From: Bacillota bacterium | GTDB lineage: Bacteria; Bacillota; DTU025; MWDF01 | DNA: 64,000 nt | Assembly: GCA_029565935.1 (NCBI GenBank) | Contig: JAKQNF010000027.1 | Coordinates: forward strand, 6,905 to 70,904 | Direction: 5' to 3' | Part shown: in pieces, positions 10,471-47,126 of the stretch | Layout: every line of letters begins with the position of its first letter | Position numbering within the stretch: position 1 is the stretch's first letter | Translations under genes and position numbers: made by a program | The notes under the pieces: model-generated | What the model was told of the DNA's origin: nothing | The model's database searches: none | What the model saw: the letters and a program-made list of their open reading frames with translations, nothing else

Positions 10471-10490
10471 ACGATTACCTACTTGTCTTC

Positions 10491-12599: not shown

Positions 12600-12620
12600 A
12601 GTTATTCACCCCCATAAAAT

Positions 12621-23292: not shown

Positions 23293-23296
23293 AATC

Positions 23297-32022: not shown

Positions 32023-32049
32023 ATGTAAATCCCCTTTCGGCATCCGGCC

Positions 32050-32778
32050 TCAGCCGGCGCTGCCTAGAATGCCTGTCTCCTTGAAGCTAACGTAGGAGTC
32101 TGCCCCGATGACTATATGGTCGATGACCTCTATGCCTATGAGCCTTCCCGCCTCCAGCAGCCTCGCCGTCACGGCCATGTCCTCCCTGCTGGGCGTAGGG
32201 TCTCCGCTGGGGTGGTTATGCGCGACTATGAGAGAGGCCGAGTTCCTTGCGATGGCCGCCCTGAATACCTCCCTCGGATGTACCAGCGACGCCGTCAGGG
32301 TGCCCATCGACACGGTCTCGATGTCCAGCATCCGGTTCTTGGAATCCAGCATCATAACCCTGAACTCCTCGTGCCTCAGGTGCCTCATGCCGGGCCTTAG
32401 CATCGCAGCCGCATCTACGGCCACCGATATCCTGGGCCGTTCCCCGAGGTTCCCGGAAGCTATCCTGGAGCCCAGCTCGACCGCGGCTTTTATCTGCGCC
32501 GCCCTCACCTTTCCCAGCCCGGCCGTCTTGGATAGCTCGTCCACATCAAGCGAAGCGAGCCTTTCTTGCCCTCCGCACCCGCTGATGATCCTGATCGCCG
32601 CCTCAAGCGCGCTCTCGCGCCTGTTTCCGCACCTAATCACGACCGCTATAAGCTCGGCGGTGCTCAAAGCCGCCGGTCCTAATGAGAAAAGCCTTTCTGT
32701 CGGCCTTTCGGCGATGGGCATCGCCTTCATTCCCTTTATCGTATCTTCGGTCACCGTAAACGCCCTCCCCTGCACCAT
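32050..32778 (-). CDS. radC: RadC-like JAB-domain protein (UPF0758)
   Basis: HNHPSGDPTPSREDMAVT JAMM-like motif. ERPTERL HhH N-terminus. True start may be the internal ATG at 32730. Confidence 0.8.
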   Translation of the reverse strand: MVQGRAFTVTEDTIKGMKAMPIAERPTERLFSLGPAALSTAELIAVVIRCGNRRESALEAAIRIISGCGGQERLASLDVDELSKTAGLGKVRAAQIKAAVELGSRIASGNLGERPRISVAVDAAAMLRPGMRHLRHEEFRVMMLDSKNRMLDIETVSMGTLTASLVHPREVFRAAIARNSASLIVAHNHPSGDPTPSREDMAVTARLLEAGRLIGIEVIDHIVIGADSYVSFKETGILGSAG

Positions 32779-32802
32779 GATGCAGACGAGGACCTTCGCG
32801 GG

Positions 32803-33396
32803 CTAGATTACCCGGATGCCTGCCTCCTTAAGAAGTCGAGCCGTAAGCCTTAACGGAAGGCCCACAACGTTGAAGTAGTCCCCCGTTATGCCCTCGATAT
32901 AGAGCGAGCCCAGCCCCTGTATGGCATATGCGCCCGCCTTGTCGAGCGGCTCTTTTGTGTCGACGTACCCGGCTATCTCCTCTTCGGACATCGGAAGGAA
33001 CCGCACCTTGGTCTCCTCATGGGCGGATGATTCGAACCCGCCCGCCGCGTTAATCACGCAGACTCCCGTGAAGACCTCGTGTTCCCTTCCCTGCAGCTTC
33101 CGGAGCATGCTCTTCGCATCCTCCTGGTCCTTGGGCTTGCCCAGGACCTCTCCTTCCAGAACGACCACCGTGTCAGCGCCGAGGACGACATCAAACGGCC
33201 TTCCTGCCGATACCGCCTGGGCCTTCCTCTTCGCCAGTGTCTCTACTAGAAGGCCGGGATCCGGCCTTCCGTCCACGTATTCGTCCGCGCTGCTAGGAAC
33301 GATGTCGAAGATAAGCCCCAGCGAACCTAGGAGTTCGATCCTCCTTGGCGACGCCGAAGCCAGGATAAGTCTCGCCATTCCTCTACCGGATGCCAT
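32803..33396 (-). CDS. maf: Maf nucleoside-triphosphate pyrophosphatase (septum formation protein)
   Basis: LILASASPRRIELLGSLGL... canonical Maf. Confidence 0.9.
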   Translation of the reverse strand: MASGRGMARLILASASPRRIELLGSLGLIFDIVPSSADEYVDGRPDPGLLVETLAKRKAQAVSAGRPFDVVLGADTVVVLEGEVLGKPKDQEDAKSMLRKLQGREHEVFTGVCVINAAGGFESSAHEETKVRFLPMSEEEIAGYVDTKEPLDKAGAYAIQGLGSLYIEGITGDYFNVVGLPLRLTARLLKEAGIRVI

Positions 33397-33462
33397 GGCC
33401 TCTCGGGCCTTGCTTCCGTCTCCCTTTTATTAATTTAACATAAAAACGGACGGCATCGGGAA

Positions 33463-33512
33463 CGCATCATAGAAATGGCCGCCCCCGCGCAAAGCAGAGC
33501 GCGGGGGCGGCC
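33463..33512 (-). terminator. 14-bp perfect GC hairpin (GGCCGCCCCCGCGC/GCGCGGGGGCGGCC) after rnfB: terminator of the rnf-containing transcript
   Basis: Read directly 13 nt downstream of rnfB stop. Confidence 0.6.
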
Positions 33513-33524
33513 ACGGTAGATGTC

Positions 33525-34352
33525 CTAGGCTTCTACTCTAAGGTCCGAATCGGGGCCGAACAGGTTGTGTATGCACTTGACCGGGCATTTCTGTACGCAA
33601 ATGCCGCACTTCGTACACTTCGAGTTGTCGATCACCGCTACGGTCCCGTTCATGCTGATGGCGCTAGTCGGGCAGTTCTTGACACATATCTGGCATCCGA
33701 TGCAGACCGCCGAGCAGTCCTGCTTGCTCTTGGGGATCGGGGCCTTCGAGCAGCAGACTACGTTCACCGGCTCCTCCGCGCTCCTAAGAGCGAGGAGCTT
33801 CCTGGGACAGACAGATACGCACTTGCCGCAGCCGGTGCACTTCGAGTCGTCTATCTTTGGCAGGCCGTCCTCTCCCATGTACATGGCATCGAACGGGCAC
33901 TCCCTGACACAAGAGCCGATGCCGAGGCAACCGTACGAGCAGGCCTTGAACCCACCGCTCACAGCGTTGGCAGCGGCGCAGGTGTCTATGCCCTTGTACT
34001 CGGCGATGTCCTTCGCTATCCCTTTCCCGCCGGCGCACATGAGCCTTGAGAACTTAGGGCCGTCTCCCGCTTCCAGCGCGACGCCCATTATCTCCGCGAT
34101 CTTCGCCGCCACACTTGAGCCGCCGACAAGGCACGATCCGCAAGGTGCCTTCTCCTCGCTTATCGCCTTGGCGAGCCCGTTGCAACCGGGATATCCGCAT
34201 GCGCCGCAGTTGGCGCCCGGCAGGACTCCTAGTATCATGTCTACCTTGGGATCGTGCTCCACTGCGAGCAGCTTCGCCGCCACGGCCAGGGCCACTCCGA
34301 ACACGAGGCCCATGCCACCCAGTATAAGAAGGCTGTTAACAATCATTTCCAC
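33525..34352 (-). CDS. rnfB: Rnf complex subunit B (poly-ferredoxin)
   Basis: N-terminal TM plus multiple CxxCxxCxxxCP clusters. Confidence 0.85.
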   Translation of the reverse strand: MEMIVNSLLILGGMGLVFGVALAVAAKLLAVEHDPKVDMILGVLPGANCGACGYPGCNGLAKAISEEKAPCGSCLVGGSSVAAKIAEIMGVALEAGDGPKFSRLMCAGGKGIAKDIAEYKGIDTCAAANAVSGGFKACSYGCLGIGSCVRECPFDAMYMGEDGLPKIDDSKCTGCGKCVSVCPRKLLALRSAEEPVNVVCCSKAPIPKSKQDCSAVCIGCQICVKNCPTSAISMNGTVAVIDNSKCTKCGICVQKCPVKCIHNLFGPDSDLRVEA

Positions 34353-34372
34353 TCACCCCCGTAAGCCGTCGA

Positions 34373-34969
34373 TCATAGGCCGAACAGCTTCTCGAGGTTG
34401 AAACCGGAGAAGCCAAGGAAAGCCATCGCCATCTGCGCGGTTATGATCAGCGCCAGAGGGAAGCCCTGGAAGGACTTCGCTATAGGCGCGGTATTGAGCT
34501 TTTCCCTCAGGGCGGCCATCGCTATTAGGACAAGGGAGAACCCTATCCCGCCTCCCGTGCCAGAGATAACCGCCTGGATGAAGTTATACCCTTCGCGTAC
34601 GTTGATCACGGCGACGCCGAGCACGGCGCAGTTGGTCGTGATGAGCGGCAGGTAGATGCCCAACGCCCTGTAAAGCGTGGGGCTCATCTTCAGGATAATC
34701 ATCTCGATCAGCTGGACCAGCGCCGCGATGACGAGGATGAAGGAGACCGTCTGCAGGAAGCCCAGTCCGAGGGGTACCAGCAGGTAATACTGGACCATCC
34801 AGGTGACCGCGGCGGCCAGGCTCATCACGAATATGACGGCGGCGGCCATGCCCATCGCGGTGTCGAACTGGTTCGACACGCCAATGAAGGGGCAGGTGCC
34901 CATTATCCTGGCCAGCATGTAGTTGTTTACGAGTATCGTGCTAAGCAGTATTATAAAGAGCTCTTTCAT
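34373..34969 (-). CDS. rnfA: Rnf complex subunit A
   Basis: 198 aa, 6-TM, RnfA/NqrE-like. Confidence 0.85.
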   Translation of the reverse strand: MKELFIILLSTILVNNYMLARIMGTCPFIGVSNQFDTAMGMAAAVIFVMSLAAAVTWMVQYYLLVPLGLGFLQTVSFILVIAALVQLIEMIILKMSPTLYRALGIYLPLITTNCAVLGVAVINVREGYNFIQAVISGTGGGIGFSLVLIAMAALREKLNTAPIAKSFQGFPLALIITAQMAMAFLGFSGFNLEKLFGL

Positions 34970-34974
34970 GACCG

Positions 34975-35631
34975 CTATACCTCCTTCGCGGCACAGGCTG
35001 CGCTAGCCTGCTTGGCCTTCTTGCTCCTGCTCGTGATCCCGTTGATCGACGCGAGCACGAAGCCGAGGGTCATGAAGCCGCCTACCGGCTTGTCTACCAG
35101 GGCCGCTGCGAACTTGGCGGGTATGAGCTTTATGCCTTCGAAACCGAAGTCCTTGGCGTAGAGTATCTTGCCCGTCGCTATGGGCTCCCTTATTATCGCA
35201 AGGATGATCACTGCCAACGTGAAGCCGAGCCCCATACCCAGGCCGTCGGCGATCGAATCGACGACGCCGTTCTTGTATGCGAACGCCTCTGCCCTCGCCA
35301 GGATGATGCAGTTGACGACTATCAGAGGCACGAACACGCCCAATATCCTGTGCAGGTCCGGCAGATAGGCGGCCATGCTCAGGTCTACGATCGTCACGAA
35401 CGTGGCGATGACGACGATGAAGCAGGGTATCCTGATCTTGTCGGGTATCATGTTCCTGAGGGCCGATATGAACAGGTTGCTGAATACTAGGACGAACGTA
35501 GCCGCGAGGCCCATGCCTACCGCATTGGACACGGCCGTTGAAGATATCATCGCGGGACACATGCCTATAAGCATGGCGAAGGTAGGGCTTTCGGCCCATA
35601 GGCCCTTCTTGAACTCCTTGAATGCGCTCAT
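34975..35631 (-). CDS. rnfE: Rnf complex subunit E
   Basis: 218 aa RnfE/NqrD-like membrane protein. Confidence 0.85.
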   Translation of the reverse strand: MSAFKEFKKGLWAESPTFAMLIGMCPAMISSTAVSNAVGMGLAATFVLVFSNLFISALRNMIPDKIRIPCFIVVIATFVTIVDLSMAAYLPDLHRILGVFVPLIVVNCIILARAEAFAYKNGVVDSIADGLGMGLGFTLAVIILAIIREPIATGKILYAKDFGFEGIKLIPAKFAAALVDKPVGGFMTLGFVLASINGITSRSKKAKQASAACAAKEV

Positions 35632-35645
35632 TGCCGCCTACCCCC

Positions 35646-36206
35646 TTACATCCCGAGGAGGGCCTTGGCTATATTGAGGGCCTTGTTGACCCCCGCCACG
35701 GCACCCTTGGAAGAAATCGTGGCGCCCGAAATCCCGTCAATCTGGCCGCCCTCTTTCACTAGGGACAGTACGCCCTTCTTGCCGGCGAACTGGCCGTAGA
35801 ACGGCTCCTCCTTGACGTTGGCGCCCAGGCCGGGTGTCTCGCTCTGGCTGATGACCTGCATACCTTGGCATACGCCCTGGGTATCCATGCCCACCAGCAT
35901 CGTGATCATCCCGCCGTATCCTGCGCTCTCGACCTTGACGATCGCGCCGACGGTCGAGCCGGCAGCTTTACCCAGATAGGCCTCCACGACCCCCTGTGCC
36001 CCGCCGGACGCTGCCGAGAGCTCTATCGCCGGTATCGGCTCGAAGTCGGTGGCCGAAGGAAGCACCACAGCCATCGCCTTCATGGCCTCCTTGGCCTGCC
36101 TCGCCTCAATGATTACGCTGGTCTTGCTGTAGACGAATGCAAGCGACACGCCCGATATCACGCAGATGACCGTCAGTATCGCACCGTATCTGATGAAATC
36201 ACGCAC
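35646..36206 (-). CDS. rnfG: Rnf complex subunit G (FMN-binding)
   Basis: DGISGATISSKGAV covalent-FMN motif. Confidence 0.85.
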   Translation of the reverse strand: MRDFIRYGAILTVICVISGVSLAFVYSKTSVIIEARQAKEAMKAMAVVLPSATDFEPIPAIELSAASGGAQGVVEAYLGKAAGSTVGAIVKVESAGYGGMITMLVGMDTQGVCQGMQVISQSETPGLGANVKEEPFYGQFAGKKGVLSLVKEGGQIDGISGATISSKGAVAGVNKALNIAKALLGM

Positions 36207-37176
36207 GGTTGCGCACCTCCCCGAAACGCTTCTGCGCGCCGAACCTCTCGATGAGTGGCACGAAGCAGTTCATAAGAAGTATCGAAAACGCCACGCCCTC
36301 GGGGTAGCTCCCGAACATCCTTATCATGAACGTGAATATCCCGAGCCCGACGGCGTAGACTATCTGTCCCGCAGGTTTTATCGGGCTGGTCACATAGTCC
36401 GTCGCCATGAAGAAGGCGCCGAGTATGAGACCGCCTGAGAGCAGGTGGAATATGGGGTCCTGGTTGAAGAGCATCGCAAGGCCTGCGGTCGTCAGCAAGT
36501 ACACGAGAGGTATCCTCAAGGTTATGATCCCGGCGAACAGCAGGAAAAGCGCCCCGATGAGAAGAGCTATCGCCGAAGTCTCGCCGAGCGATCCTCCCAC
36601 GTTCCCGAAGAAGAGTGGTCCGTAGAACCTGGACAGCGAAGTAGCGCCGATCTCCCCCGTCTTAAGGAGGCCGAGAGGCGTCGCCGACGCCACTACGTCG
36701 AATCCGCGCTTCCATGCGGTTATCCCGTCCGCTGCGACATATCCTGCGCTAAGCACCGAAGGCCAGGAAAGGGCCGCGAAAGTCCTGCCTATAAGGGCAG
36801 GGTTGAAGATGTTGTAACCCAGGCCGCCGAACACGATCTTGCCGGGGCCTATCGCTATGAGGCAAGCAAGTGCGGTGACCCAAGGCTCTACCGCCGGAGG
36901 CAGCGTTAACGCCACCAGTAGTCCGGTCAATGCCGCCGAGCCGTCGCTTATAGTAATATCGAACTTCCATATCTTCTGGATCGCATATTCCCAAAGGACC
37001 GCTGAAGCCACGCCTACCACCAGGTTGATGGCGGCCCAAGGGCCGAAGAAATAGACTCCGCACAGGGCCGCGGGCATCAACGCGATGAAGACGACCTGCA
37101 TTATCCTCGGTGTCGCGACCCTGTCCCTCAAGTGGGGCGCTGCGGTGATTATTAGGCCTTTTTCGGACATGTCCAT
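36199..37176 (-). CDS. rnfD: Rnf complex subunit D
   Basis: RnfD/NqrB-like polytopic protein. Start approximate (MDMSEKG). Track ORF overlaps rnfC end. Confidence 0.8.
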   Translation of the reverse strand: MDMSEKGLIITAAPHLRDRVATPRIMQVVFIALMPAALCGVYFFGPWAAINLVVGVASAVLWEYAIQKIWKFDITISDGSAALTGLLVALTLPPAVEPWVTALACLIAIGPGKIVFGGLGYNIFNPALIGRTFAALSWPSVLSAGYVAADGITAWKRGFDVVASATPLGLLKTGEIGATSLSRFYGPLFFGNVGGSLGETSAIALLIGALFLLFAGIITLRIPLVYLLTTAGLAMLFNQDPIFHLLSGGLILGAFFMATDYVTSPIKPAGQIVYAVGLGIFTFMIRMFGSYPEGVAFSILLMNCFVPLIERFGAQKRFGEVRNRA

Positions 37177-37183
37177 CACCCCG

Positions 37184-38497
37184 TCACTTCTTGCGCCTGG
37201 CCAAGGCATATTGCTTGGCCAGCTTAATCGACTGCACCAACGGCCTCTTCGAGGGGCAAACGTACGAGCAGCACCCGCATTCCATGCAGTCGGCGGCGAA
37301 TAGTTTCTCCGCCCTGGCCATGTCTTCGGCCAGCGCGTATTTATGAATCTCCGAAGGCTGCAGGAACATCGGGCAGACCTCGTTGCACCTGCCGCACCTT
37401 ATGCAAGGCATCTCCTTCCAGAAGAGCGCCTGCTGCCGTCCCAGCAGCACTATGCCAGAGGTGCCTTTGGTTATGGGGAAGTCCAGGCTAGGCACGGCGA
37501 CTCCCATCATGGGACCGCCGAATATTGCCTTGCCGAGCTCTCCCTTGACGCCCCCGCACAGCTCTACGAGTTCGGACGCATATGTCCCGATGTAGGCCTC
37601 CACGGTAGCAGGCCTGCTTACGGCCTCGCCGGATACCGTTACGTACCGCTTGATCAAAGGCAGGCCTGTCGTGAACCTGTCGGAGATGGCGGCTGCGGTC
37701 CCGACGTTAACCACTACGACCCCTACGCTGAATGGCAGCGCACCCGGAGGCACCTCGCGGCCCAGCGTCGCTTTTATGATGGCCTTCTCATACCCTTGCG
37801 GGTAACTGGATTTCAAAGGCATCACCTCGATGCCCTGGTACTTGCCGGCCGCGGCCGTGAGCGCCGCTATGGCGTCGGGCTTATTGTCCTCGACGCCTAT
37901 GATGGCCCTCTTCACGCCGACGCTCCTCATGACTATGTAGGTGCCGTGGACCACCTTGTCGGCCTTCTCCGTCATCATCCTGTGGTCGGAGGTGAGATAA
38001 GGTTCGCACTCGCCGCCGTTGACCACCACGGTGTCCACTTTCACTCCCTGGGGCAGCGACAGCTTAACATGGGTGGGGAACTCGGCCCCTCCCATCCCCA
38101 GCATGCCGGCTTCCCTGATGACGTTCCTGATTTCCTCCGGAGTCATCGAATCCAAGTCCTCGACCGGCGCGATCCCCTCGCATAGCTCCTGCTTCCCATC
38201 CGATTCGATCGTTATGCCAAGGAACTCCAGCCCTGTATGGGCCCTATATGGCTTAGCATCCACTACCTTGCCGGATACCGGGGAGTGCGTCGGAACGCAC
38301 ATGAAGCCCTCGTTGTCCGCCAACTTCTGACCCACCTTGACTTCGGTCCCCTTGGGAGCCAGCACTTTGTAGCCTACCCACGAAGGACCTACCGGCACCG
38401 TCACCCTTGCCGGCACGGGCGCCGTGACAGTCCCGGCATCGCACGCATACTTGCACTGTGCCGGGTGTATGCCTCCGACGAACGTCCTTACAGCCAT
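37184..38497 (-). CDS. rnfC: Rnf complex subunit C (NADH-binding, 2x[4Fe-4S])
   Basis: CIRCGRCNEVCP and CMECGCCSYVCP ferredoxin motifs. 437 aa. Confidence 0.9.
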   Translation of the reverse strand: MAVRTFVGGIHPAQCKYACDAGTVTAPVPARVTVPVGPSWVGYKVLAPKGTEVKVGQKLADNEGFMCVPTHSPVSGKVVDAKPYRAHTGLEFLGITIESDGKQELCEGIAPVEDLDSMTPEEIRNVIREAGMLGMGGAEFPTHVKLSLPQGVKVDTVVVNGGECEPYLTSDHRMMTEKADKVVHGTYIVMRSVGVKRAIIGVEDNKPDAIAALTAAAGKYQGIEVMPLKSSYPQGYEKAIIKATLGREVPPGALPFSVGVVVVNVGTAAAISDRFTTGLPLIKRYVTVSGEAVSRPATVEAYIGTYASELVELCGGVKGELGKAIFGGPMMGVAVPSLDFPITKGTSGIVLLGRQQALFWKEMPCIRCGRCNEVCPMFLQPSEIHKYALAEDMARAEKLFAADCMECGCCSYVCPSKRPLVQSIKLAKQYALARRKK

Positions 38498-38533
38498 CTA
38501 TCTCACTCCTTGTCGGTTGGTAGCCTTGGAGCA

Positions 38534-40213
38534 CTAGAACAGGTTCAGTATAGTACCGTCTTCCAGTATGTCGATGCTGTTGGCGGCCGGGACCTTCGGC
38601 AGGCCGGGCATTGTCATGACCTCTCCTGTTATCGCCACGATGAAGCCCGCGCCGGCGGATATCCTAATCTCCTTTACCGTAAGCTTCCAGCCTCTCGGCC
38701 TTCCCTTTATGTCGGCTATGTCGGTGAGGGAATGCTGGGTCTTGGCCACGCATACCGGCAAGTCGCCGTAGCCTATCCTCCTTATGGTGCCCAGCATGTT
38801 CTTTGCGGAATCCGAGAATAACACGTCGTCCGCACCGTAGACTTTCGTCGCAAGCGTCTTGATCTTCTCCTCCGCCGTCAGCTCGAGGCCGTAGAGCATC
38901 CTGAAGTCGTTGGCGTCCTTCTCGAGCGCCTCGAGCACCTGCTCTGCAAGCTGCCTGCCACCGTCTCCGCCCTTGGCGACGACCTCTGACACCGCATAGC
39001 GCACGCCGCGCTCCTTGCAGCGCCTCTCGATCAGTTCTAGCTCCTCCTGGCTGTCGGTGGGGAACTTGTTTATGGCCACTACTACGGGAAGGCCGAAGTT
39101 GTCCTTGAGGTTATCGATATGGGCATCGAGGTTCTCGCAGCCCTTCGCCAGTGCGTCGAGGTTGGTCTCGGACACTTTGTCCTTGGGCACGCCGCCGTGC
39201 ATGTTGAGCGCCCTGACCGAGGCGACCAGCACCGCCACATCGGGCTTGAGGCCGGTCTGCCTATGCACTATGTCGAAGAACTTCTCGGCGCCCAGATCGG
39301 AGGCGAAACCGCCCTCGGTGACTACGTAGTCGGCCAGCTTGAGGGCCAGCTTAGTAGCCAATATAGAGTTGTTACCGTGGGCTATGTTCGCGAAAGGCCC
39401 GCCGTGAATGAAGGCCGGCTGGCCCTCGACGGTCTGCACGAGGTTCGGCTTTATTGCGTCCTTGAGGAGCACCGCCATCGCGCCTACCGCCTTTATGTCG
39501 GCAGCGGTGACGGGCTTCCTGTCATAGGTATAGGCCACTATTATGCGTCCTAGCCTCGCCTTCAAGTCTTCCATGCCAGAGGCGAGGCAGAGTATGGCCA
39601 TCACTTCCGACGCAACGCTTATGTCGAAGCCGCTCTCCCTGGGCATGCCGTTGCTTATGCCGCCCAGCCCGCAGACTATGTCCCTCAGCTGCCTGTCGTT
39701 CATGTCCATCACGCGCTTCACCAATACCCTCCTGGGATCGATGTTCAGCGCGTTACCCTGGAAGATGTGGTTGTCCAGCAGCGCAACCATGAGGTTGTGG
39801 GCTGCGGTCACCGCATGGATGTCGCCCGTGAAGTGCAGGTTTATGTCCTCCATCGGCAGCACCTGCGAGTATCCTCCGCCTGTCGCCCCGCCCTTGATCC
39901 CGAACACAGGACCTAGGGAAGGCTCCCTCAAAGCTACCGTCACTCTCTTGCCCATCTTGCCCAGTGCCTGCGTAAGGCCTATCGCCGTGCAGGTCTTGCC
40001 CTCGCCGGCGGGAGTGGCGGTGATAGCGGTCGTGTAGATCAGCTTCCCGTTAGGATTGTCCTTCAGCCTGTCAAGCAGGCTGAGGGGAAGCTTGGCCTTG
40101 TATCTTCCATAATATTCCAGGTCTTTCTCGGCAATGCCGATCGAAGCCGCTATCTGCTGGATCGGCTTAAGCTCGGTGGCCTGTGCAATTTCAATATCGC
40201 TAGGAATTGGCAT
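38534..40213 (-). CDS. fhs: Formate--tetrahydrofolate ligase
   Basis: 559 aa. MPIPSDIEIAQ...TPAGEGKTCT P-loop typical of FTHFS. Confidence 0.9.
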   Translation of the reverse strand: MPIPSDIEIAQATELKPIQQIAASIGIAEKDLEYYGRYKAKLPLSLLDRLKDNPNGKLIYTTAITATPAGEGKTCTAIGLTQALGKMGKRVTVALREPSLGPVFGIKGGATGGGYSQVLPMEDINLHFTGDIHAVTAAHNLMVALLDNHIFQGNALNIDPRRVLVKRVMDMNDRQLRDIVCGLGGISNGMPRESGFDISVASEVMAILCLASGMEDLKARLGRIIVAYTYDRKPVTAADIKAVGAMAVLLKDAIKPNLVQTVEGQPAFIHGGPFANIAHGNNSILATKLALKLADYVVTEGGFASDLGAEKFFDIVHRQTGLKPDVAVLVASVRALNMHGGVPKDKVSETNLDALAKGCENLDAHIDNLKDNFGLPVVVAINKFPTDSQEELELIERRCKERGVRYAVSEVVAKGGDGGRQLAEQVLEALEKDANDFRMLYGLELTAEEKIKTLATKVYGADDVLFSDSAKNMLGTIRRIGYGDLPVCVAKTQHSLTDIADIKGRPRGWKLTVKEIRISAGAGFIVAITGEVMTMPGLPKVPAANSIDILEDGTILNLF

Positions 40214-40227
40214 GCGTGCACCTCCAT

Positions 40228-41637
40228 CTATGATCTCGATCTTATGTACTGGTCTATGCCTCTTGCCGCCTGCTTGCCCGCGCCCATGGCGGCTATCACT
40301 GTTGCCGCTCCGGTGACTATGTCGCCTCCGGCGAAGACGCCTGGGATGCTCGTGGCTCCGTAATCGTCGTTTATCTCTATGTATCCGCGCTTGTTGAGGC
40401 CCAGCGCCTTCGTGTTCCTGGTTAGAACTGGATTCGGGCCCTGTCCTATGGCCACGACCACCGTATCGGCCTCTATCTCGAACTCAGACCCTTCCACAGG
40501 CACAGGCCTGCGCCTTCCGCTCGCGTCCGGTTCTCCGAGCTCCATCCTCTGGCATACCATCTTCTTCACTATGCCCTGCTCGTCTCCCACTATCTCGACG
40601 GGATTCGTCAGCAGGTTCAGCTTGACGCCCTCTTCCTCGGCGTTTTCGATCTCCTCGATCCTCGCGGGCATCTCCTGCCTGGATCTCCTGTAGACTATCT
40701 GCACGTCCTCGGCACCCAGCCTGAGCGCAGTCCTTGCGGAGTCCATGGCGACGTTCCCGGCACCCACCACGCATACCCTCTTGCCTATCCTTACGGGGGT
40801 CCCGTAGCAGGGGAACTTGTAGGCCTTCATGAGGTTGACCCTGGTGAGGAACTCGTTGGCGGAGTATACGCCGTTGAGGTTCTCGCCCGGTATGCCAAGA
40901 AAGTACGGCAGGCCCGCGCCAGTGCCTATGAACACGGCGCTGTAGCCCTCCTTCTCCAGCAGCTCCTCGAGGCCTATGCTCATCCCTATCACGGCATTGG
41001 TCACTATCCTTACGCCGAGCTGCTTCACGTACGCCACTTCCCTGTCGACGATGTTCTTCGGGAGCCTGAACTCAGGTATGCCATACCTTAGCACTCCTCC
41101 CGTCTCGTGAAGCGATTCGTATATGTCGACCTGGTATCCCATCAAGGCAAGGTCGGCCGCGCAGGTCAGCCCGGACGGGCCGGATCCTATTACCGCCACT
41201 TTGGGTGCGCCGTCGGCGGCCCTCCTTTCGACTTCCTGCTTTGAGTGCGCCCTTTCGTAGTCCGATACGAAACGCTCCATGTAGCCGATGGCAACGGGCT
41301 TGAACTTCTTTCCGAGGGTGCAGACGCTTTCGCACTGCGTCTCCTGAGGGCAGACCCTGCCGCACACCGCCGGTAGGCTGTTCTTCTCCTTGATCTTCAA
41401 GGACGCTTCGATGAACTTGCCCTCTGCGGCAAGTGCCAAGAACTCCGGGATGGGCACCTCTACCGGGCAGCCCGCCACGCAGGGCCTCGTCTTGCACTGC
41501 AAGCAGCGCATCGCCTCGGCCTGGGCAGTCTGTTCGCTAAGACCCTGGGCCACTTCATTGAAATTCCTCGCCCTTTCCTCAGGGCTCTGCTTGGGCATCT
41601 CTGGCCTAGCTGAAAAATCTCTTACCGACATCTGCAA
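40228..41637 (-). CDS. nfnB: NfnB/GltD-like NADPH-dependent FAD oxidoreductase with 2x[4Fe-4S] (electron-bifurcating transhydrogenase large subunit or SudA)
   Basis: CLQCKTRPCVAGCPVEVPIPEF plus Rossmann GSGPSGL. 469 aa. Confidence 0.75.
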   Translation of the reverse strand: MQMSVRDFSARPEMPKQSPEERARNFNEVAQGLSEQTAQAEAMRCLQCKTRPCVAGCPVEVPIPEFLALAAEGKFIEASLKIKEKNSLPAVCGRVCPQETQCESVCTLGKKFKPVAIGYMERFVSDYERAHSKQEVERRAADGAPKVAVIGSGPSGLTCAADLALMGYQVDIYESLHETGGVLRYGIPEFRLPKNIVDREVAYVKQLGVRIVTNAVIGMSIGLEELLEKEGYSAVFIGTGAGLPYFLGIPGENLNGVYSANEFLTRVNLMKAYKFPCYGTPVRIGKRVCVVGAGNVAMDSARTALRLGAEDVQIVYRRSRQEMPARIEEIENAEEEGVKLNLLTNPVEIVGDEQGIVKKMVCQRMELGEPDASGRRRPVPVEGSEFEIEADTVVVAIGQGPNPVLTRNTKALGLNKRGYIEINDDYGATSIPGVFAGGDIVTGAATVIAAMGAGKQAARGIDQYIRSRS

Positions 41638-42464
41638 CCCTCCCCGGACCTATGCTTGTCGAGAGCTAGGCGCTCCTCCTCGCGGAAGAACGTCTGGCGC
41701 TTAATAAGCTCGTCGAAGTCCACCTCATGGGCATCGAACTCCGGGCCGTCCACGCACGAGAACTTGGTCTGCCCGGCCACCGTAACCCTGCAGCAGCCGC
41801 ACATGCCGGTGCCGTCCAGCATGGTGGCGTTGAGGCTCACCGTGGTCTTGACGCCGAATTTTCTCGTGACGTCAGCGCAAGCTTTCATCATGCGCACGGG
41901 GCCGATCGCCACGACCTCGTCGGCCGGCTTGCCCGACTTGATGTACTCCTCCAGGGCCTGGGTGACAAAACCGTGGAAGCCGCAGCTGCCGTCATCGGTG
42001 CAGAGGATCATCTCGCTCGATACCATGGTCGCGGTGTCTCTCAGCACGTACAGGTTCTCGGTCCTCGCGCCGAGTATGGTCACGACCTTGTTGCCCACCC
42101 TCATATGCTCCTTGATCTGGGGGATCAGCGGAGCGATGCCGATTCCTCCCGCTACGGCAAGTACTGTGCCCACCTTCTCGATCTTCGTCGGCTTCCCACA
42201 GGGGCCCAATACGTCGGCGAGCAGGGAGCCTTCCTCGTACTCGCACAGTTTCATGGTTGAGGCGCCGATCTCCTGTACGACTATGGTTATCGTGCCCAGC
42301 TTCTCATCGTGCTCGACTATGGTAAGTGGGATCCTTTCGCCCTTCTCGTCCGCCCTGACCATGACGAAATTGCCCGGTTTAGCTGCCTTGGCCACGAGGG
42401 GCGCTTCCAGTACGAACATATACACGGACGGAGCCAGCAGCTTCTTCGCAATAATCCTATGCAT
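41622..42464 (-). CDS. nfnA: NfnA/SudB-like FAD/[2Fe-2S] electron-transfer subunit
   Basis: 280 aa PyrK-like fold with C-terminal CGCCRV...C cluster. Overlaps nfnB start by 16 nt. Confidence 0.75.
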   Translation of the reverse strand: MHRIIAKKLLAPSVYMFVLEAPLVAKAAKPGNFVMVRADEKGERIPLTIVEHDEKLGTITIVVQEIGASTMKLCEYEEGSLLADVLGPCGKPTKIEKVGTVLAVAGGIGIAPLIPQIKEHMRVGNKVVTILGARTENLYVLRDTATMVSSEMILCTDDGSCGFHGFVTQALEEYIKSGKPADEVVAIGPVRMMKACADVTRKFGVKTTVSLNATMLDGTGMCGCCRVTVAGQTKFSCVDGPEFDAHEVDFDELIKRQTFFREEERLALDKHRSGEGCRCR

Positions 42465-42479
42465 AACTAACCTGCCTTT

Positions 42480-43397
42480 CTACCATTTATGACAATTGAG
42501 ACAGTCCACTTCGAACCAGTCGCCGTGGCAGCTTTCGCACGATGCGTGGCTCAGCCCGTCGCCGGCAGGCACTAGCTGATCCGCATGGCAGCTTTCACAG
42601 CCGAAAGCGATATGTGAACCGTGAGGTATCTTCATATTTGCGGTCTCATTGAAATCGAGGTTGATGTGACAGCTTTCGCAGCTCGGATCGGCCGCGTCGA
42701 ACCAGCCTTCGTGGCATGCCATACAAGTGCCGTGCCCGATCTTGCCCTCTGCGCCCAACACGTACTCCACATGGCAGTCCTGGCAGCCCAGGAAGCTGTG
42801 CGTCTCATGCGGGATCGCAAGCTTCTCCGTAGCGGTCACGGTCGACTTGATGTGGCACTTCGCGCAGTCCGCCGTATCTTTAGCGAACCATTCCTGGTGG
42901 CACGTGATGCACTTGTCGTGACTTATCGCCCTCATGGGCTGGCCGTCGATCCCATGGACCACTCCTTCGTGGCAGTCATAGCAGGCAATGTCCAAACCTG
43001 CCGAATGGATCGAATGTGGTATCGCCACCTCATCCGTCCCGCCCGAGTTCGCAGCGTTCGCATGGCATCTCGTGCAGAACCCGTCATCCACCTGTATGCC
43101 CGCGAAGCTGGTGGCGCCTCCCGCCTTCTCTACCTTCCTCATCCTCGCAATCGAGAACCTGTTCTCGAACCAGCCCTTGAAGCCCGGCTTCATGTGGCAC
43201 TCGGCGCATCCCGTCTTGGAGTGCGCGCCCATGGCCCAGGTATCCGCCGAAGGCTGCATCGAATGGCAAGAACTGCAGTACTTGTCGGTCTCCGTATAGG
43301 CGGCGGCCGCGACTACTCCCCCGATGGCTACCAAAAGCACTAGCAGCACCACTCCTTGTGAAAAACCCCTTTTGAACAAAACAGGCCTGCTGGACAT
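42480..43397 (-). CDS. Membrane-anchored dodecaheme cytochrome c (12 CxxCH motifs)
   Basis: N-terminal TM helix then CSSCH, CAECH, CTRCH, CYDCH, CITCH, CAKCH, CQDCH, CMACH, CESCH x3, CLNCH. Three IPHxxH segments indicate an internally triplicated module. Confidence 0.85.
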   Translation of the reverse strand: MSSRPVLFKRGFSQGVVLLVLLVAIGGVVAAAAYTETDKYCSSCHSMQPSADTWAMGAHSKTGCAECHMKPGFKGWFENRFSIARMRKVEKAGGATSFAGIQVDDGFCTRCHANAANSGGTDEVAIPHSIHSAGLDIACYDCHEGVVHGIDGQPMRAISHDKCITCHQEWFAKDTADCAKCHIKSTVTATEKLAIPHETHSFLGCQDCHVEYVLGAEGKIGHGTCMACHEGWFDAADPSCESCHINLDFNETANMKIPHGSHIAFGCESCHADQLVPAGDGLSHASCESCHGDWFEVDCLNCHKW

Positions 43398-43430
43398 GAG
43401 AATATACCCCCTTGAATTCCTTAGGGTCGG

Positions 43431-44078
43431 TTATGCGTAGAAAGCCAGGCTCTGGAGCGATACCGTCACGTCTGCGTTGCTCACCCTCACGTTCTCGGGG
43501 ACTATCAGGGTGGCCGGGCTGAAGTTGAGAAATGCTTTGACACCGGCTTCGATGCAGATGTCGGCCATCTTCTGGGCCGCTTCCGCCGGCACGGTAAGCA
43601 CGGCTATCTTTATGCCGCTCTTTACGATTACGTCCTTGAGCATGTTTACGTGATAGGCGGGCACTGAATCGAACGGGCCCTGTTTCAAGACTTCCTCGTC
43701 TATGTCGAATCCGGCCTCTATCGTCAAGTTCTTGTATCCGCTGTTCCTCTGCCCGCTGTCGCGCTTGTAGGCGTTGTAGTGTATGATGGCCTTGCCCATC
43801 CTTCCAAGGCCTACGATGGCTATCTTCACGTCCTGGTCGAGCTTCAGTATGGTCAGCAACTGCTTCTTGAGCGTCGATATCTTGTAGCCGACCCCCTGCT
43901 TGCCGAAGCCTCCGAAGATCGTAAGGTCCTTCCTTACCTGGGTTGGGGACGTCCCCGTAACATCTCCGAGCTCCTTTGACGATACTATCGAAAGCCCCGC
44001 GTTCTCAAGATTGTCAAGCGCTCTGAGGTACATGGGCAACCGTCTGACGACTACGTCGGGCACCTTCTGGTCGCTCAT
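43431..44078 (-). CDS. rex: Redox-sensing transcriptional repressor Rex
   Basis: VVRRLPMYLRALDNL winged-helix N-terminus plus Rossmann GxGxxG (VGLGRMG). Confidence 0.9.
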   Translation of the reverse strand: MSDQKVPDVVVRRLPMYLRALDNLENAGLSIVSSKELGDVTGTSPTQVRKDLTIFGGFGKQGVGYKISTLKKQLLTILKLDQDVKIAIVGLGRMGKAIIHYNAYKRDSGQRNSGYKNLTIEAGFDIDEEVLKQGPFDSVPAYHVNMLKDVIVKSGIKIAVLTVPAEAAQKMADICIEAGVKAFLNFSPATLIVPENVRVSNADVTVSLQSLAFYA

Positions 44079-44096
44079 ACGAAAAACCTCCGATTC

Positions 44097-44552
44097 TCAG
44101 TTCGATGTTGTCCTTCCGGGGCAGGAAACCTCCCCCGGGTCGGCTTTTCCTGTGACTTTGGGGCAGAAGCTCCTCTTGTCCAGCCCCATATCGTACTTCC
44201 TCACTCCGAAGTAAGTCAGGGCGAGGAACGTGAAGCCCCCTATCACCGAAAAGAGGTCGGACGAGCCTTTCATGCCGAAGTAGCCCGCAACCCCGTTGCC
44301 GGTAACGATGCCCGCGAGGAAACCGAGCAGCGGCAACCCGTAGGCTATGCCGGCGGCCTTGAGGACGTCCCCGTCCTTCATCTCCACCACGACGTAGTCC
44401 CCCGGCTCGACCTCGGTCTCGCATATGGCCTTTACCCGCTTGGCGTTCGAAGAAGGCTGGCACATGCCGCAGCCCCTGCAGGCCTGCGGCCTCGTAATCT
44501 CGAGAACGGCCCAGCCCTTCTCCAAGGACAGGACCTTTCCTAGTTGCTGCAT
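44097..44552 (-). CDS. rseC: RseC/MucC-family small membrane protein (Rnf-associated)
   Basis: 151 aa. N-terminal Cys motif ACRGCGMC then two TM helices. Confidence 0.65.
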   Translation of the reverse strand: MQQLGKVLSLEKGWAVLEITRPQACRGCGMCQPSSNAKRVKAICETEVEPGDYVVVEMKDGDVLKAAGIAYGLPLLGFLAGIVTGNGVAGYFGMKGSSDLFSVIGGFTFLALTYFGVRKYDMGLDKRSFCPKVTGKADPGEVSCPGRTTSN

Positions 44553-44738
44553 GATTCATCCCCACTGCCGATTACCGCACTCCTGCGGCTTTTTGGCCGT
44601 CCGCGGAAATCCAACTAGAATTATACAACAACTCTTCACAAAGTTCTAAAAAACGTCTTGCTCGGCTTCAGATGTGCCTTTCTGCGTCCGGACGCTGGGA
44701 TAAAAGAAAACCCTGAACTATAAGTCCAGCTAAACAAA

Positions 44739-44776
44739 ATTGATTCCGGCATCTTACGCATGATTGCCGGAATCAA
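44739..44776 (-). terminator. 12-bp inverted repeat TTGATTCCGGCA...TGCCGGAATCAA plus TTTTGTTTA: terminator after HATPase gene, insulating it from the rseC operon
   Basis: Read directly 32 nt downstream of the 44808 stop. Confidence 0.5.
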
Positions 44777-44807
44777 GGGGAATCTGCATTGTATGAGTAA
44801 AAATACA

Positions 44808-45242
44808 CTACTTATGCCTGTTGAGGGTCATCCTGACCATGGTGCCGGTGCCCTTCTGCGAGCTTATCTCGAATTTGTCGGAGCATTTCTTCATGTTCGG
44901 CAATCCCATGCCCGCCCCGAAGCCCATCCTGCGGGCCTCTTCGTCCGCCGTGGAGAATCCCTCCGTCATGGCAAGGGGTATGTCCGGTATGCCAGGTCCG
45001 ACGTCCACAGCCGTTATCAGGATGGCGTCCGGCTCGATTAGGGCCGTGAGCATCCCGCCCCTGGAATGTATCACGATGTTCATCTCCGCCTCGTATGCCG
45101 CGACGGCGGCCCTCCTGACCAGCTCGGCGTCGAAGCCGTGCTGGCTGAGGTATCTTTTTATAGTGGCGGCGGCATCGCCGGCCCTGATGAAATCCCTCGC
45201 TATGATCTCGAACTGCAACTTGGTGTTGTCGGCAGAAGACAT
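44808..45242 (-). CDS. Anti-sigma-factor-like Ser/Thr kinase (HATPase_c, RsbW/SpoIIAB-like)
   Basis: 143 aa from ATG at 45242 (GGGGGT SD). GHKL ATPase motifs. Confidence 0.6.
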   Translation of the reverse strand: MSSADNTKLQFEIIARDFIRAGDAAATIKRYLSQHGFDAELVRRAAVAAYEAEMNIVIHSRGGMLTALIEPDAILITAVDVGPGIPDIPLAMTEGFSTADEEARRMGFGAGMGLPNMKKCSDKFEISSQKGTGTMVRMTLNRHK

Positions 45243-45243
45243 C

Positions 45244-45612
45244 CTACGACCCCCTAACCGAGGTGCAATCGGCGGGTCCGACCCCCGCTTGGTACAACTT
45301 CCCACAGGCTTCGTACATGGTCATCTTCGTGCATATGAGAGGAAGGGCCGACCTTTGTGCCAGCTCGACCATGTCGTGCGTCGGTCTTTTGCCCCTTACG
45401 AATACGACGGCCGATATGCCCGATATCTCGGCGGTCCTGACCAGCTGGCAGCCCAGCAGCCCTGTAAGCAGCAGATAGCCCGGCCTGCCGAACGCGAGCA
45501 CGTCGCTTAGGAAATCGGACGCGAAGGCGAAGTCCGCCTCCTGCGAGAGGGAAGACATGTCGCATGCCAGGGCATCGGCCTGAAGCAGGTTGGTTATCTC
45601 GTCAATCCTCAT
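45244..45612 (-). CDS. DRTGG-domain protein
   Basis: 122 aa from ATG at 45612 (AAGGGAGG SD). DRTGG-like segment LLTGLLGCQLVRTAEISGISAVVFVRG. Confidence 0.55.
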   Translation of the reverse strand: MRIDEITNLLQADALACDMSSLSQEADFAFASDFLSDVLAFGRPGYLLLTGLLGCQLVRTAEISGISAVVFVRGKRPTHDMVELAQRSALPLICTKMTMYEACGKLYQAGVGPADCTSVRGS

Positions 45613-45628
45613 GGATGCCTCCCTTAAA

Positions 45629-46345
45629 CTAATCGAAGATAGTAGCGGAGTAGCCGTAACCTTCAACCTTCGTCTCAAGGTTCTCCGCATTCGTCCTGCT
45701 GCTGAAGGCACCTATCTGTACGTAGTACTTCTGCGCCAGCGTGATCAGCGTAGGGAACCCGAGCTTGACGAGCTCCTGCGCCGCTGCGCTCGCCTCTGCC
45801 ATGCTCTGGTAGGGTCCGACCCTGACCTTGTAGAGTTCGGGGATCTTCTGTGACTGGTCCGTCGGCTCAAGAGCCTCCGGTGCTGTCGTTTCTTCTGCCG
45901 GAGCGCCGGTCCCTTCGGCCGCTGCCTCAGCTTCCTGGCCCTCAGCCGCAGTTCCTTCAGCCGCCGTGCCCTCAGCAGGTTGCCCTTCGATAGGCTTTAT
46001 GCTAAGGTTGTCGCTCATCCAAGGCGGCGTCTCGAACGGGGAAGACCTTCCGTTGCCGGTCTCAGCTTGCCCGCTCGCAACCGACGGCAGCTCGACCGAC
46101 GGCGTCTCGGTCTCTCCGGTCTGTGCCTCCACGGCCGGTATTTCCTCGGCCGGGACGTCAAGGGCCTCGCCGGTACCTTCCGTGCCAAGCTCATCCAAGG
46201 GGCTTGCGCCCTCGCCGCGGTTCATGAGCGCCATCAGGCCCTCTCCGGCGAACCATCCGATGACTATGGCCCCCGCCGCTATGAGCAGCACGGCCAAAGC
46301 CCAGGATAACAGCTTGCCTCGAGATCCATACCTGCCTTTGTCCAT
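45629..46345 (-). CDS. SPOR-domain protein with N-terminal TM and Glu/Ala/Thr-rich linker
   Basis: C-terminal YKVRVGPYQSMAEASAAAQELVKLGFPTLITLAQKYYVQIGAF matches SPOR fold signature. Confidence 0.65.
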   Translation of the reverse strand: MDKGRYGSRGKLLSWALAVLLIAAGAIVIGWFAGEGLMALMNRGEGASPLDELGTEGTGEALDVPAEEIPAVEAQTGETETPSVELPSVASGQAETGNGRSSPFETPPWMSDNLSIKPIEGQPAEGTAAEGTAAEGQEAEAAAEGTGAPAEETTAPEALEPTDQSQKIPELYKVRVGPYQSMAEASAAAQELVKLGFPTLITLAQKYYVQIGAFSSRTNAENLETKVEGYGYSATIFD

Positions 46346-46391
46346 TTCATCCCTCCGGATATCTTATTCATCCCAACCACGGTTTTTCCTG

Positions 46392-47126
46392 CTAGTTTTC
46401 CCAGGGCTTCAAAAGATACCTCTTAAGGGGAAACACAAGCAGCCCCTTGTCCGAAGCCAGCCTTGCGGCCAGGTCGGGTCGGCTGGCGACCAGCTCGTCG
46501 TAGATTACGACGAACTTCACCGGCACTCCCCTGGAAGAGGATACCTCCTCGATTATGCCCATGCCCTCGTATGCAAGTTCGTAATCGCTCTCGGTGCCCA
46601 GGTTGGTGTTCGCTACCAGCCCCGTCACGCTAAGCCTGGAAGATTCTTCCACCATGTCCATCATCTTGAGGATCTCGTCCTTCGTCGAGGCGAAGGGCCT
46701 CCTGGTGTTGATGACGTACAGGACTTCCTTGTCGGCGTCGAACTTTGGGGCGTACCTGCCCAGCGCCCTTGCTCCCAGGTGGTCCCCCCCGACGTCTATC
46801 ACGACCTTGCTCTCCTTGCTCCTTATCAGAGCGTCCACTTCGCCTGTCACTATCGGAAGGTCCGCGTTCGAAAGCCCGGCGATCGTATCCACCATCCTCA
46901 CCCCCGAGGCGATGACCGCCTTCCTTATGTCCCTGGACCTGAACATCGGCTTGACTATGTCTATGTCCACCAAGGACACATTGTCGTGCTTCCTTGCCAG
47001 CCCTATGGCCATGTTTACGGCTATCTCGGTCTTCCCGCTGCCGAACGCCCCGCACAGTACCGTTATCCTCCTCGGCGCGAAGAGGTCCATGTCCACACCG
47101 TCGTGCTTGTATCCTACGCCTAGCAT
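46392..47126 (-). CDS. Uncharacterised SIMIBI-class P-loop NTPase (Walker A GAFGSGKT, UreG-like Walker B region)
   Basis: 244 aa from ATG at 47126 (AGGAGG SD). Family not assignable without a search. Confidence 0.5.
   Translation of the reverse strand: MLGVGYKHDGVDMDLFAPRRITVLCGAFGSGKTEIAVNMAIGLARKHDNVSLVDIDIVKPMFRSRDIRKAVIASGVRMVDTIAGLSNADLPIVTGEVDALIRSKESKVVIDVGGDHLGARALGRYAPKFDADKEVLYVINTRRPFASTKDEILKMMDMVEESSRLSVTGLVANTNLGTESDYELAYEGMGIIEEVSSSRGVPVKFVVIYDELVASRPDLAARLASDKGLLVFPLKRYLLKPWEN

Follow-up and report, generated by a model that had tools for sequence, protein, structure and literature searches.

The 64,000-nucleotide stretch of a Bacillota bacterium genome analyzed here (assembly GCA_029565935.1, contig JAKQNF010000027.1, positions 6,905 to 70,904; hereafter, the window) encodes on its minus strand a dodecaheme cytochrome c that sits directly after rex, the gene for a redox-sensing transcriptional repressor, within a cluster running from rseC to the rnf genes. 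The protein joins an N-terminal head of the NrfH type to three triheme modules of the cytochrome c7 type. Judging from this architecture and from the conserved gene neighborhood, we regard the chances as evenly balanced that it serves as a Rex-linked, outward-facing heme wire fed from the quinone pool. All coordinates are those of the window unless a related locus (numbered with L) is named; matched proteins are numbered with P.

A conserved and intact dodecaheme cytochrome gene

The gene and its product were delimited as follows:

42480..43397, minus strand: dodecaheme cytochrome c gene, 305 amino acids, 12 CxxCH motifs; stop codon at 42480-42482

An earlier note, made by a model from the letters of the window, had reported 12 CxxCH motifs in 305 residues without naming the strand, and our count reproduced this number exactly, with motifs at residues 41, 64, 108, 139, 163, 178, 205, 225, 240, 267, 287, and 299. 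All 24 cysteines of the protein lie within these motifs, as do 12 of its 23 histidines, leaving 11 outside them. Across all frames of the window, this is the only open reading frame (ORF) with two or more CxxCH motifs; because no other ORF reaches even two, the 12 motifs are not a composition effect. The ATG start codon is preceded, 8 nucleotides (nt) 5' of it, by the Shine-Dalgarno sequence AAGGGGG.

Our first protein search recovered seven close relatives with 63-100% identity, one of them identical to the window protein and all of 304-305 amino acids. In the alignment of the window cytochrome with its six non-identical orthologues (63-84% identity), the sequences are collinear and mean column identity is 80%, yet no substitution affects Met47 or any of the 24 Cys and 23 His. 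The frameshift that the earlier note had raised as a possible flaw is absent, the seven orthologues being collinear and of matching length. Relative to the closest orthologous locus, L005 (84% amino acid identity), the ratio of nonsynonymous to synonymous substitution rates (dN/dS) is 0.14, indicative of purifying selection; this is the top value within the cluster, and when nine genes (rseC through rnfG) were compared, those for the cytochrome and RnfG, both outside-facing parts, diverged fastest. The invariant ligands and this dN/dS value rule out a pseudogene or a chance ORF, and the cytochrome is encoded by a real, conserved, and intact gene under purifying selection.

An NrfH-type head followed by triheme c7-type units

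Sequence comparison divides the protein into a head and three consecutive units:

43026..43397, minus strand: head, residues 1-124, with the helix, hemes 1-3 (C41 in CSSCHSM, C64, C108), and distal His59; PF03264 match of 36 bits over residues 16-71
43299..43355, minus strand: hydrophobic helix, residues 15-33, aligning with the NrfH membrane helix
42819..43025, minus strand: unit 1, residues 125-193, hemes C139/C163/C178, His128/131/148/160; c7 match of 31.2 bits over profile positions 4-66 of 67
42633..42818, minus strand: unit 2, residues 194-255, hemes C205/C225/C240, His197/200/222; c7 match of 21.1 bits over profile positions 5-66 of 67
42483..42632, minus strand: unit 3, residues 256-305, hemes C267/C287/C299, His259/262/284, and the C-terminal CHKW; placed by unit alignment

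The head contains the single hydrophobic segment of the protein, spanning residues ~15-33 (19 residues; mean Kyte-Doolittle value 2.8) and the only segment to exceed a Kyte-Doolittle value of 1.6. It is preceded by an N-terminus with a net charge of +3, which predicts an N-in/C-out topology. Together with the alignment to the NrfH helix, these features agree with the N-terminal transmembrane anchor proposed in the earlier note: the helix would serve as a signal anchor with the N-terminus inside (N-in, C-out), although it may instead belong to a signal peptide that is cleaved at AAA-Y, where the hyphen marks the cleavage point. The Pfam NapC/NirT model PF03264 scores 34.5 bits (cut-off 24.1) and covers only residues 16-71, and the best NCBIfam match is the NrfH model TIGR03153, which pairs residues 15-148 with positions 5-138 of 138 at E 1e-9. 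A profile built from the head and unit 1 matches the NrfH chain 2j7a_C of the PDB at E 1.8e-10 over the helix, heme 1, and heme 2. The heme 1 motif CSSCHSM, of the CxxCHxM type, lies 7 residues past the helix; Met47 and His59 are invariant across the 12-heme clade, and the 30-heme relative has Val in place of Met47. An amphipathic membrane-surface helix at residues 72-92 was also considered and rejected, as the hydrophobic moment gives it no support.

The remainder of the protein is organized around three IPHxxH motifs, VAIPHSIHS (residues 123-131), LAIPHETHS (192-200), and MKIPHGSHI (255-263), and splitting at PHxxH yields units of 69, 62, and 50 amino acids. The three aligned units agree with the internal triplication that the earlier note had read from these same motifs. 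Across 31 units from nine proteins, 12 ligand columns are invariant in the order PHxxH..CxxCH..H..CxxCH..CxxCH, so that every unit holds three CxxCH motifs and three further invariant His. The Pfam cytochrome c7 model PF14522 scores 55.6 bits on the whole protein (cut-off 24.8), matching residues 125-182; on isolated units, it gives 31.2 bits for unit 1, 21.1 bits (under the cut-off) for unit 2, and no c7 match for unit 3. When the unit profile was compared with all PDB sequences, the best match was GSU1996 (3ov0) at E 2.9e-20 over four stretches, followed by the hexaheme fragment of GSU1996 and then by PpcA-type c7 cytochromes (3h4n, 2lzz, 1os6) at ~1e-7 to 1e-8.

By these matches and its ligand order, the repeated unit is a ~62-residue triheme module of the cytochrome c7 type and not a NapC/NrfH tetraheme unit, and because the repeat is such a triheme module, the heme count is 3 (head) plus 3 × 3, not 3 × 4. 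Two claims of the earlier note are affected. Its NapC/NrfH likeness holds for the N-terminal head, as given by PF03264 over residues 16-71 and by 2j7a_C, and does not extend to the repeats; its description of the triplicated unit as a NapC/NrfH-like tetraheme is contradicted by the three CxxCH motifs and three His of each unit and by the match to GSU1996. Of the family models that it had proposed as a check, PF03264 scores above its cut-off but covers residues 16-71 only, and the NrfH equivalog stays below its own cut-off. The three units share only 18-26% mutual identity outside the heme-ligand columns, and no tandem repeat is present at the DNA level in the window cytochrome gene; the triplication is therefore old.

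Ligand bookkeeping further distinguishes the hemes of the head from those of the units. Units 2 and 3 are self-sufficient, each with three heme sites and three distal His, and the spare ligands are one extra His in unit 1 (His148) and His59 of the head, making 11 distal His for 12 hemes. Since 11 distal His serve 12 hemes, heme 1 is the sole heme without one, and the c7 modules are predicted to be bis-His throughout. In the NrfH structure of Rodrigues et al. 2006, the quinol-site heme is reportedly ligated by the Met of CxxCHxM and likewise has no distal His. By analogy, the ligand pattern of heme 1 (CSSCHSM, no distal His) would fit an NrfH quinol-site heme.

Relatives with one to nine units on a constant head

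An exhaustive profile search over 1.84 billion representative proteins returned 1731 matches at E <1e-3, of which only five fell at E <1e-30. These five have a common head and differ in unit number alone. The length forms are the following:

P0012: 174 amino acids, 1 unit, 6 hemes
P0011: N-terminally truncated call, 2 units, 8 hemes in the called sequence and presumably 9 in the complete protein
Window protein: 305 amino acids, 3 units, 12 hemes
P0010: 494 amino acids, 6 units, 21 hemes
P0009: 683 amino acids, 9 units, 30 hemes

A CHKW terminus is common to the 6-, 9-, 12-, 21-, and 30-heme forms, with the 21-heme P0010 ending CHKWE. Within the long forms, middle units show 33-58% mutual identity outside the ligand columns, and the gene for the 30-heme form (L014, 3989-4472) contains a 192-bp tandem DNA repeat of 2.5 copies with 78% matches, corresponding to one 64-codon unit. 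This repeat is direct evidence of recent module duplication. Together with the identity among middle units, it indicates that length changes through tandem duplication of the intervening modules, while the head and the end stay fixed. Remoter relatives, at E 1e-15 to 1e-26, comprise penta- and hexaheme head-plus-unit proteins of 160-210 amino acids, together with larger fusions. The 6-, 9-, 21-, and 30-heme cytochromes are 32-38% identical to the window cytochrome, and the Rex proteins encoded with them are 47-49% identical to the window Rex, the distant hexaheme protein P0015 being included in this comparison.

Conserved placement after rex within an rseC-to-rnf cluster

The genes surrounding the cytochrome, in their order on the minus strand (rseC, rex, cytochrome, nfnA, nfnB, fhs, rnfC, D, G, E, A, B), are:

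44097..44552, minus strand: rseC, opening the cluster and encoding an Rnf/Rsx-associated membrane protein of the RseC/MucC family; PF04246, 92 bits
43431..44078, minus strand: rex, redox-sensing transcriptional repressor; NF003995, 218 bits, with PF06971 and PF02629; 33 nt upstream of the cytochrome
41622..42464, minus strand: nfnA-type gene (FAD/NAD-binding, 2Fe-2S); PRK06222, 384.7 bits; 15 nt downstream of the cytochrome
40228..41637, minus strand: nfnB-type gene (GltD-like, NADPH-dependent); TIGR01316, 604.9 bits
38534..40213, minus strand: fhs, formate-tetrahydrofolate ligase; the L001 orthologue carries PF01268, and orthologues are 85-96% identical
33525..38497, minus strand: rnfCDGEAB, assigned by synteny and by Pfam annotation of orthologous loci
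37184-38497, minus strand: rnfC
36199-37209, minus strand: rnfD
35646-36206, minus strand: rnfG
34975-35631, minus strand: rnfE
34373-34969, minus strand: rnfA
33525-34352, minus strand: rnfB

The cytochrome gene is thus flanked by rex and the nfnA-type gene, just as the earlier note had placed it. From rseC to rnfC, all genes lie on one strand with gaps of at most 36 nt, and a scan of 32000-46500 for minus-strand terminators found none in the rex-cytochrome or cytochrome-nfnA gaps. From this layout, the cytochrome appears to be co-transcribed with rseC, rex, nfnAB, fhs, and rnfCDGEAB. The gene order is kept in six species-level genomes and in several metagenome contigs.

At a broader level, rex immediately precedes the cytochrome gene in each of the 15 related loci, with rseC upstream of rex in every case, and the genes for the 6-, 9-, 21-, and 30-heme forms and for P0015 likewise come directly after rseC-rex. 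The rnf genes follow within 4-10 kb in each of the nine related loci long enough to show them; on sufficiently long contigs of the length variants, nfnAB, fhs, an electron-bifurcating-type hydABC, and rnfC are found downstream. In L015, the strand changes immediately downstream of the cytochrome gene. Upstream of the cluster, L011, L013, L015, and L020 encode a series of DRTGG, HATPase, HydS-like [FeFe] hydrogenase, DRTGG, PHP phosphatase, and HATPase proteins, and the window (at 44808-45711), like the rest of its clade, retains just the first DRTGG and HATPase of this sensory-hydrogenase module.

The region upstream of rseC contains one conserved element:

44618..44644, minus strand: 27-nt promoter-like element ACTTTGTGAAGAGTTGTTGTATAATTC, with TATAAT at 44620-44625 and one Rex-type half-site TTGTGAA, ~70 nt upstream of rseC

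The core of ACTTTGTGAAGAGTTGTTGTATAATTC is near-identical in L001, L005, and L007-L010, even though the flanking genes have come close to saturation at their synonymous sites. Just past the stop codon of the HATPase gene (44808-45305), at ~44775-44800 on the minus strand, we also observed an inverted repeat, TGTAT-N8-ATACA, kept in relatives as TTGTaTaTTTAtcnnTACAA; it may serve as a binding site for Rex or some other regulator, or belong to a terminator. No RNA element was found in the rseC leader with Rfam.

A proposed quinone-fed, outward-facing wire

Under the evenly weighted reading stated at the outset, the NrfH/NapC-type head would, in the manner of NrfH and CymA, pass electrons to or from the quinone pool of the membrane, and the three c7 modules would extend it into a 12-heme chain relaying electrons outward over ~10 nm. 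The scale comes from GSU1996, whose 12 hemes are assigned a length of 12 nm in a title cited in PMC10138318; on this basis, we estimate ~1 nm per heme. The relay would end at an extracytoplasmic partner encoded elsewhere than this locus. Judging by its shared location with rex, nfnAB, hydABC, and rnf, the wire would be made together with the machinery that balances NAD(P)H and ferredoxin, and would give electrons a way out of (or into) the cell other than H2. Such an outlet is in line with the interspecies transfer through cytochromes that metagenomes have led others to propose for digester communities (PMC7382037). The occurrence of 1, 2, 3, 6, and 9 units on one head with a constant CHKW end supports, at the level of sequence, a wire role. 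In this reading, we infer that hemes are attached, how the protein is oriented, that it couples to quinones, which way electrons flow, that Rex controls the gene, and what kind of partner stands at the distal end. The earlier note had also associated dense multiheme proteins of this kind with metal- or sulfur-reducing organisms; the context lends this no support, as the gene lies with rex, nfnAB, fhs, and rnf, and its relatives were found in metagenome-assembled genomes (MAGs) of Limnochordia-like Bacillota from anaerobic digesters.

Several observations weigh against such a wire. Many Rnf/Nfn-based anaerobes have no quinones, and we found no quinone biosynthesis (men/ubi) gene in the window or within 10 kb on either side of the 12-heme clade loci. 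No cytochrome c maturation gene was recovered among the scanned ORFs of the window, and no partner cytochrome or reductase gene lies nearby. Significant similarity to NrfH is confined to the helix, heme 1, and heme 2, and the score of 38.7 bits against the NrfH equivalog TIGR03153 is far under its cut-off of 134.2. A small-x-small motif is kept at the end of the helix in all length variants (AAA-Y, AAS-Y, SAS-M), and cleavage there would remove the link to the membrane. The canonical Rex operator TTGTGAA-N4-TTCACAA, allowing up to three mismatches, has a single match in the window, inside rpoB and at chance level, and ACTTTGTGAAGAGTTGTTGTATAATTC is not a full Rex palindrome, having the half-site only; with no canonical operator and a lone half-site, it is adjacency that points to Rex control of the cytochrome. 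Finally, the predicted structures are too poor for checking heme packing: the AlphaFold2 model of the full protein, from a seven-sequence alignment, has a predicted local distance difference test score (pLDDT) of 40 and a predicted template modeling score (pTM) of 0.24, and that of unit 2, from 24 unit sequences, reaches a pLDDT of 66.6, with nothing at E <1 in a Foldseek search against the PDB.

The neighborhoods of distant relatives offer some functional hints. In L018 (7001-10381), a 10-heme relative is followed by resB and ccsA, which constitute a System II maturation pair, and a [NiFe] hydrogenase and a UbiE/MenG-type methyltransferase adjoin. In L023 (374-1898), the distant cytochrome is followed by a gene that we take to be ResB-like from its translated N-terminus, and in L021 (142-1751) by one that, on the same kind of reading, is presumably hemA. 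These arrangements suggest that the head-plus-unit cytochromes of L018, L023, and L021 are the main c-type cytochrome of their organisms. In L016 and L022, the hexaheme form is flanked (followed or preceded) by separate multiheme cytochromes, as expected for a membrane entry module. L020 has a polyprenyl synthase gene at 5219-6199, between rseC and rex and just upstream of the hexaheme relative, with a possible tie to isoprenoid quinone synthesis; together with the methyltransferase of L018, it offers indirect hints of quinones from distant relatives.

Alternative interpretations

We consider it possible, if unlikely, that the wire is coupled to Rnf, in which case the protein would be the bacterial equivalent of archaeal MmcA and would exchange electrons with the outward flavin sites of RnfG/RnfD and not with the quinone pool. 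The tight, single-strand cluster from rseC through rnfCDGEAB and the recurrence of rnf a few kilobases downstream in all nine sufficiently long loci both favor such a coupling, as does the known connection of RseC with Rnf, rseC lying directly upstream of rnfC in several Clostridia and being required for Rnf function (PMC9124969). Precedents for an rnf-linked cytochrome are MmcA, a multiheme subunit from the mmcA-rnfCDGEAB cluster of Methanosarcina (10.1101/2022.07.20.500911; PMC12174285), and the product of dhcA, which shares a transcript with rnf in Desulfovibrio alaskensis (PMC4215793). However, nfnA, nfnB, and fhs, joined in other lineages by hydABC, stand between the cytochrome and rnfC; the invariant neighbor is rex and not rnf; the strand changes after the cytochrome gene in L015; the head is of the quinol-dehydrogenase type; and DhcA is without an Rnf-linked phenotype (PMC4215793). 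The quinone-fed and Rnf-coupled readings are not mutually exclusive, and were the latter true, electrons from ferredoxin or NADH could leave the cell. A broader proposal, conceivable and in our view doubtful, is that a Rex-controlled wire links the Rnf/Nfn/ferredoxin hub of Wood-Ljungdahl-type Bacillota to the outside for direct interspecies or mineral electron transfer in place of H2, with module number (1-9 units; 6-30 hemes) tuned as a ruler to envelope thickness.

That the protein is instead a soluble electron store of the periplasm or cell wall, a capacitor like Geobacter GSU1996 whose helix is a cleaved Sec signal peptide, seems to us improbable. GSU1996, the best structural relative of the repeats, is a periplasmic dodecaheme protein proposed as a capacitor (PMC10138318), and all length variants keep a small-x-small motif where the hydrophobic stretch ends, which would allow cleavage. 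Nevertheless, the helix, heme 1, and heme 2 align with the uncleaved anchor region of NrfH, the hydrophobic stretch runs to 19 residues, and the heme without a distal His, so close behind the helix, fits a quinol site at the membrane surface. The domains of GSU1996, moreover, have one His-Met heme each (PMC10138318), whereas the units of the window family are all bis-His.

We attach very little weight to a redox-sensing role, in which the heme chain would report the extracellular or quinone redox state to a regulatory module of the RseC/Rex/HydS type. The cytochrome is always the first gene after the regulatory block DRTGG-HATPase-(HydS-DRTGG-PHP-HATPase)-RseC-Rex, but the protein has no signaling domain, its cytoplasmic part amounts to only ~14 residues, and growth to 21-30 hemes fits distance-spanning better. 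Least probable of all is a genuine NrfH/NapC subunit serving a periplasmic reductase (for nitrite, sulfite, nitrate, or trimethylamine N-oxide (TMAO)) encoded elsewhere in the genome: NrfH is indeed the best NCBIfam match, and the Joint Genome Institute (JGI) labels relatives 'nitrate/TMAO reductase-like tetraheme cytochrome c subunit', yet the score falls well short of the NrfH cut-off, eight extra hemes are present, the conserved partners are rex and rseC, and neither nrfA, nap, or tor nor another cytochrome gene occurs in the window or within 10 kb on either side of the 15 related loci.

Host, significance, and other features of the window

The window RpoB is 64-68% identical to those of Limnochordia MAGs, Limnochorda pilosa, and other Bacillota, which tentatively points to a Limnochordia-like Bacillota host; class placement and envelope type are equally tentative. 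The genomes sharing the gene order are all MAGs labeled Firmicutes, Bacillota, or Clostridia, several of them from digesters judging by their names ('ADurb', 'Go_SlDig'). Bacteria of anaerobic digesters dispose of electrons near the thermodynamic limit, with H2 and formate as the textbook routes. The Bacillota genes for cytochrome-mediated transfer are poorly defined, and the family described here is a concrete candidate, being the only multiheme cytochrome of its locus, adjoining the NADH sensor Rex, and lying within the rseC-to-rnf energy-conservation cluster. The 6-, 9-, 12-, 21-, and 30-heme series with the same head and end-cap also forms a natural set for relating electron-transfer range to module number. 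According to one preprint, Methanosarcina Rnf, unlike its bacterial counterparts, contains a multiheme cytochrome subunit (10.1101/2022.07.20.500911); a bacterial rnf cluster with a multiheme cytochrome would qualify that statement.

Elsewhere in the window, we observed a 5S rRNA gene (97 bits) at 10236-10352 on the minus strand, among five tRNA genes (cluster 9972-10565); with no 16S or 23S rRNA gene in the 64 kb, this 5S gene is a detached copy. A ribosomal protein L20 leader (RF00558; 60.2 bits, just over the gathering score) lies at 12613-12720 on the minus strand, upstream of presumed infC-rpmI-rplT. The same strand encodes a UPF0182 membrane protein of 921 amino acids (16449-19214) and an unusually long RNase E/G homologue of 1018 amino acids (20386-23442), with ~180 residues ahead of the catalytic domain.

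Comparison with known systems

No curated family among the NCBIfam and Pfam models claims the window protein, and our literature search found no description of the family; we compared it with the systems that resemble its parts or its genomic setting. The closest counterparts of the head are NrfH, NapC, NirT, and CymA, for example, NrfH of Desulfovibrio vulgaris (2J7A chain C). Like them, the window protein has a single N-terminal helix, a heme 1 motif CxxCHxM within ~8 residues of it, a conserved His, and heme 2; as in NrfH, one heme lacks a distal His, and the NrfH model aligns end to end with window residues 15-148. In contrast to the 4-5 hemes of that family, the window protein has 12, consists of c7-type modules from residue ~125 on, and is encoded without an adjacent catalytic partner.

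For the repeats, the nearest analogs are the 'nanowire' cytochromes of Geobacter sulfurreducens, GSU1996 and GSU0592 (12 hemes) and GSU2210 (27 hemes), which likewise carry tandem c7-type triheme domains on one chain and form a copy-number series, with four and nine domains in Geobacter and 1-9 units in the window family. They differ in that GSU1996 has one His-Met heme per domain (PMC10138318), where the corresponding column of the window family is an invariant His in 31 of 31 units. GSU1996 is also described as periplasmic (PMC10138318), whereas in the window protein the chain continues from an NrfH-like head that bears a hydrophobic helix. The window gene, moreover, belongs to a rex-nfn-rnf cluster of a Bacillota lineage. 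The triheme c7 cytochromes themselves (PpcA-E of Geobacter and Desulfuromonas c7) share the ligand order, the size of ~60-70 amino acids, and all-bis-His ligation; they are free-standing, soluble, periplasmic proteins, whereas the window module recurs inside a longer protein that is probably anchored.

Two further systems were compared by gene context. MmcA of Methanosarcina acetivorans is also a multiheme c-type cytochrome encoded with rnfCDGEAB in an anaerobe based on Wood-Ljungdahl and ferredoxin metabolism, and the proposed recipients of its electrons are a membrane carrier and acceptors outside the cell (PMC12174285; 10.1101/2023.04.20.537704); it is archaeal and directly adjoins rnfC, whereas nfnAB and fhs intervene in the window. 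The decaheme DhcA of Desulfovibrio alaskensis is, like the window protein, a bacterial multiheme cytochrome and is encoded by the first gene of an rnfCDGEABF operon; under the conditions tested, its fitness effects showed no connection with Rnf (PMC4215793).

Both building blocks, the NrfH-type head and the c7 module, are thus already known families. What the curated models and the literature found leave undescribed is their combination: an NrfH-type head fused to tandem, all-bis-His c7 modules; a copy-number series of 6 to 30 hemes on a constant head and end-cap; and a fixed place after rex inside an rseC-to-rnf cluster, in a tentatively Limnochordia-like Bacillota host.

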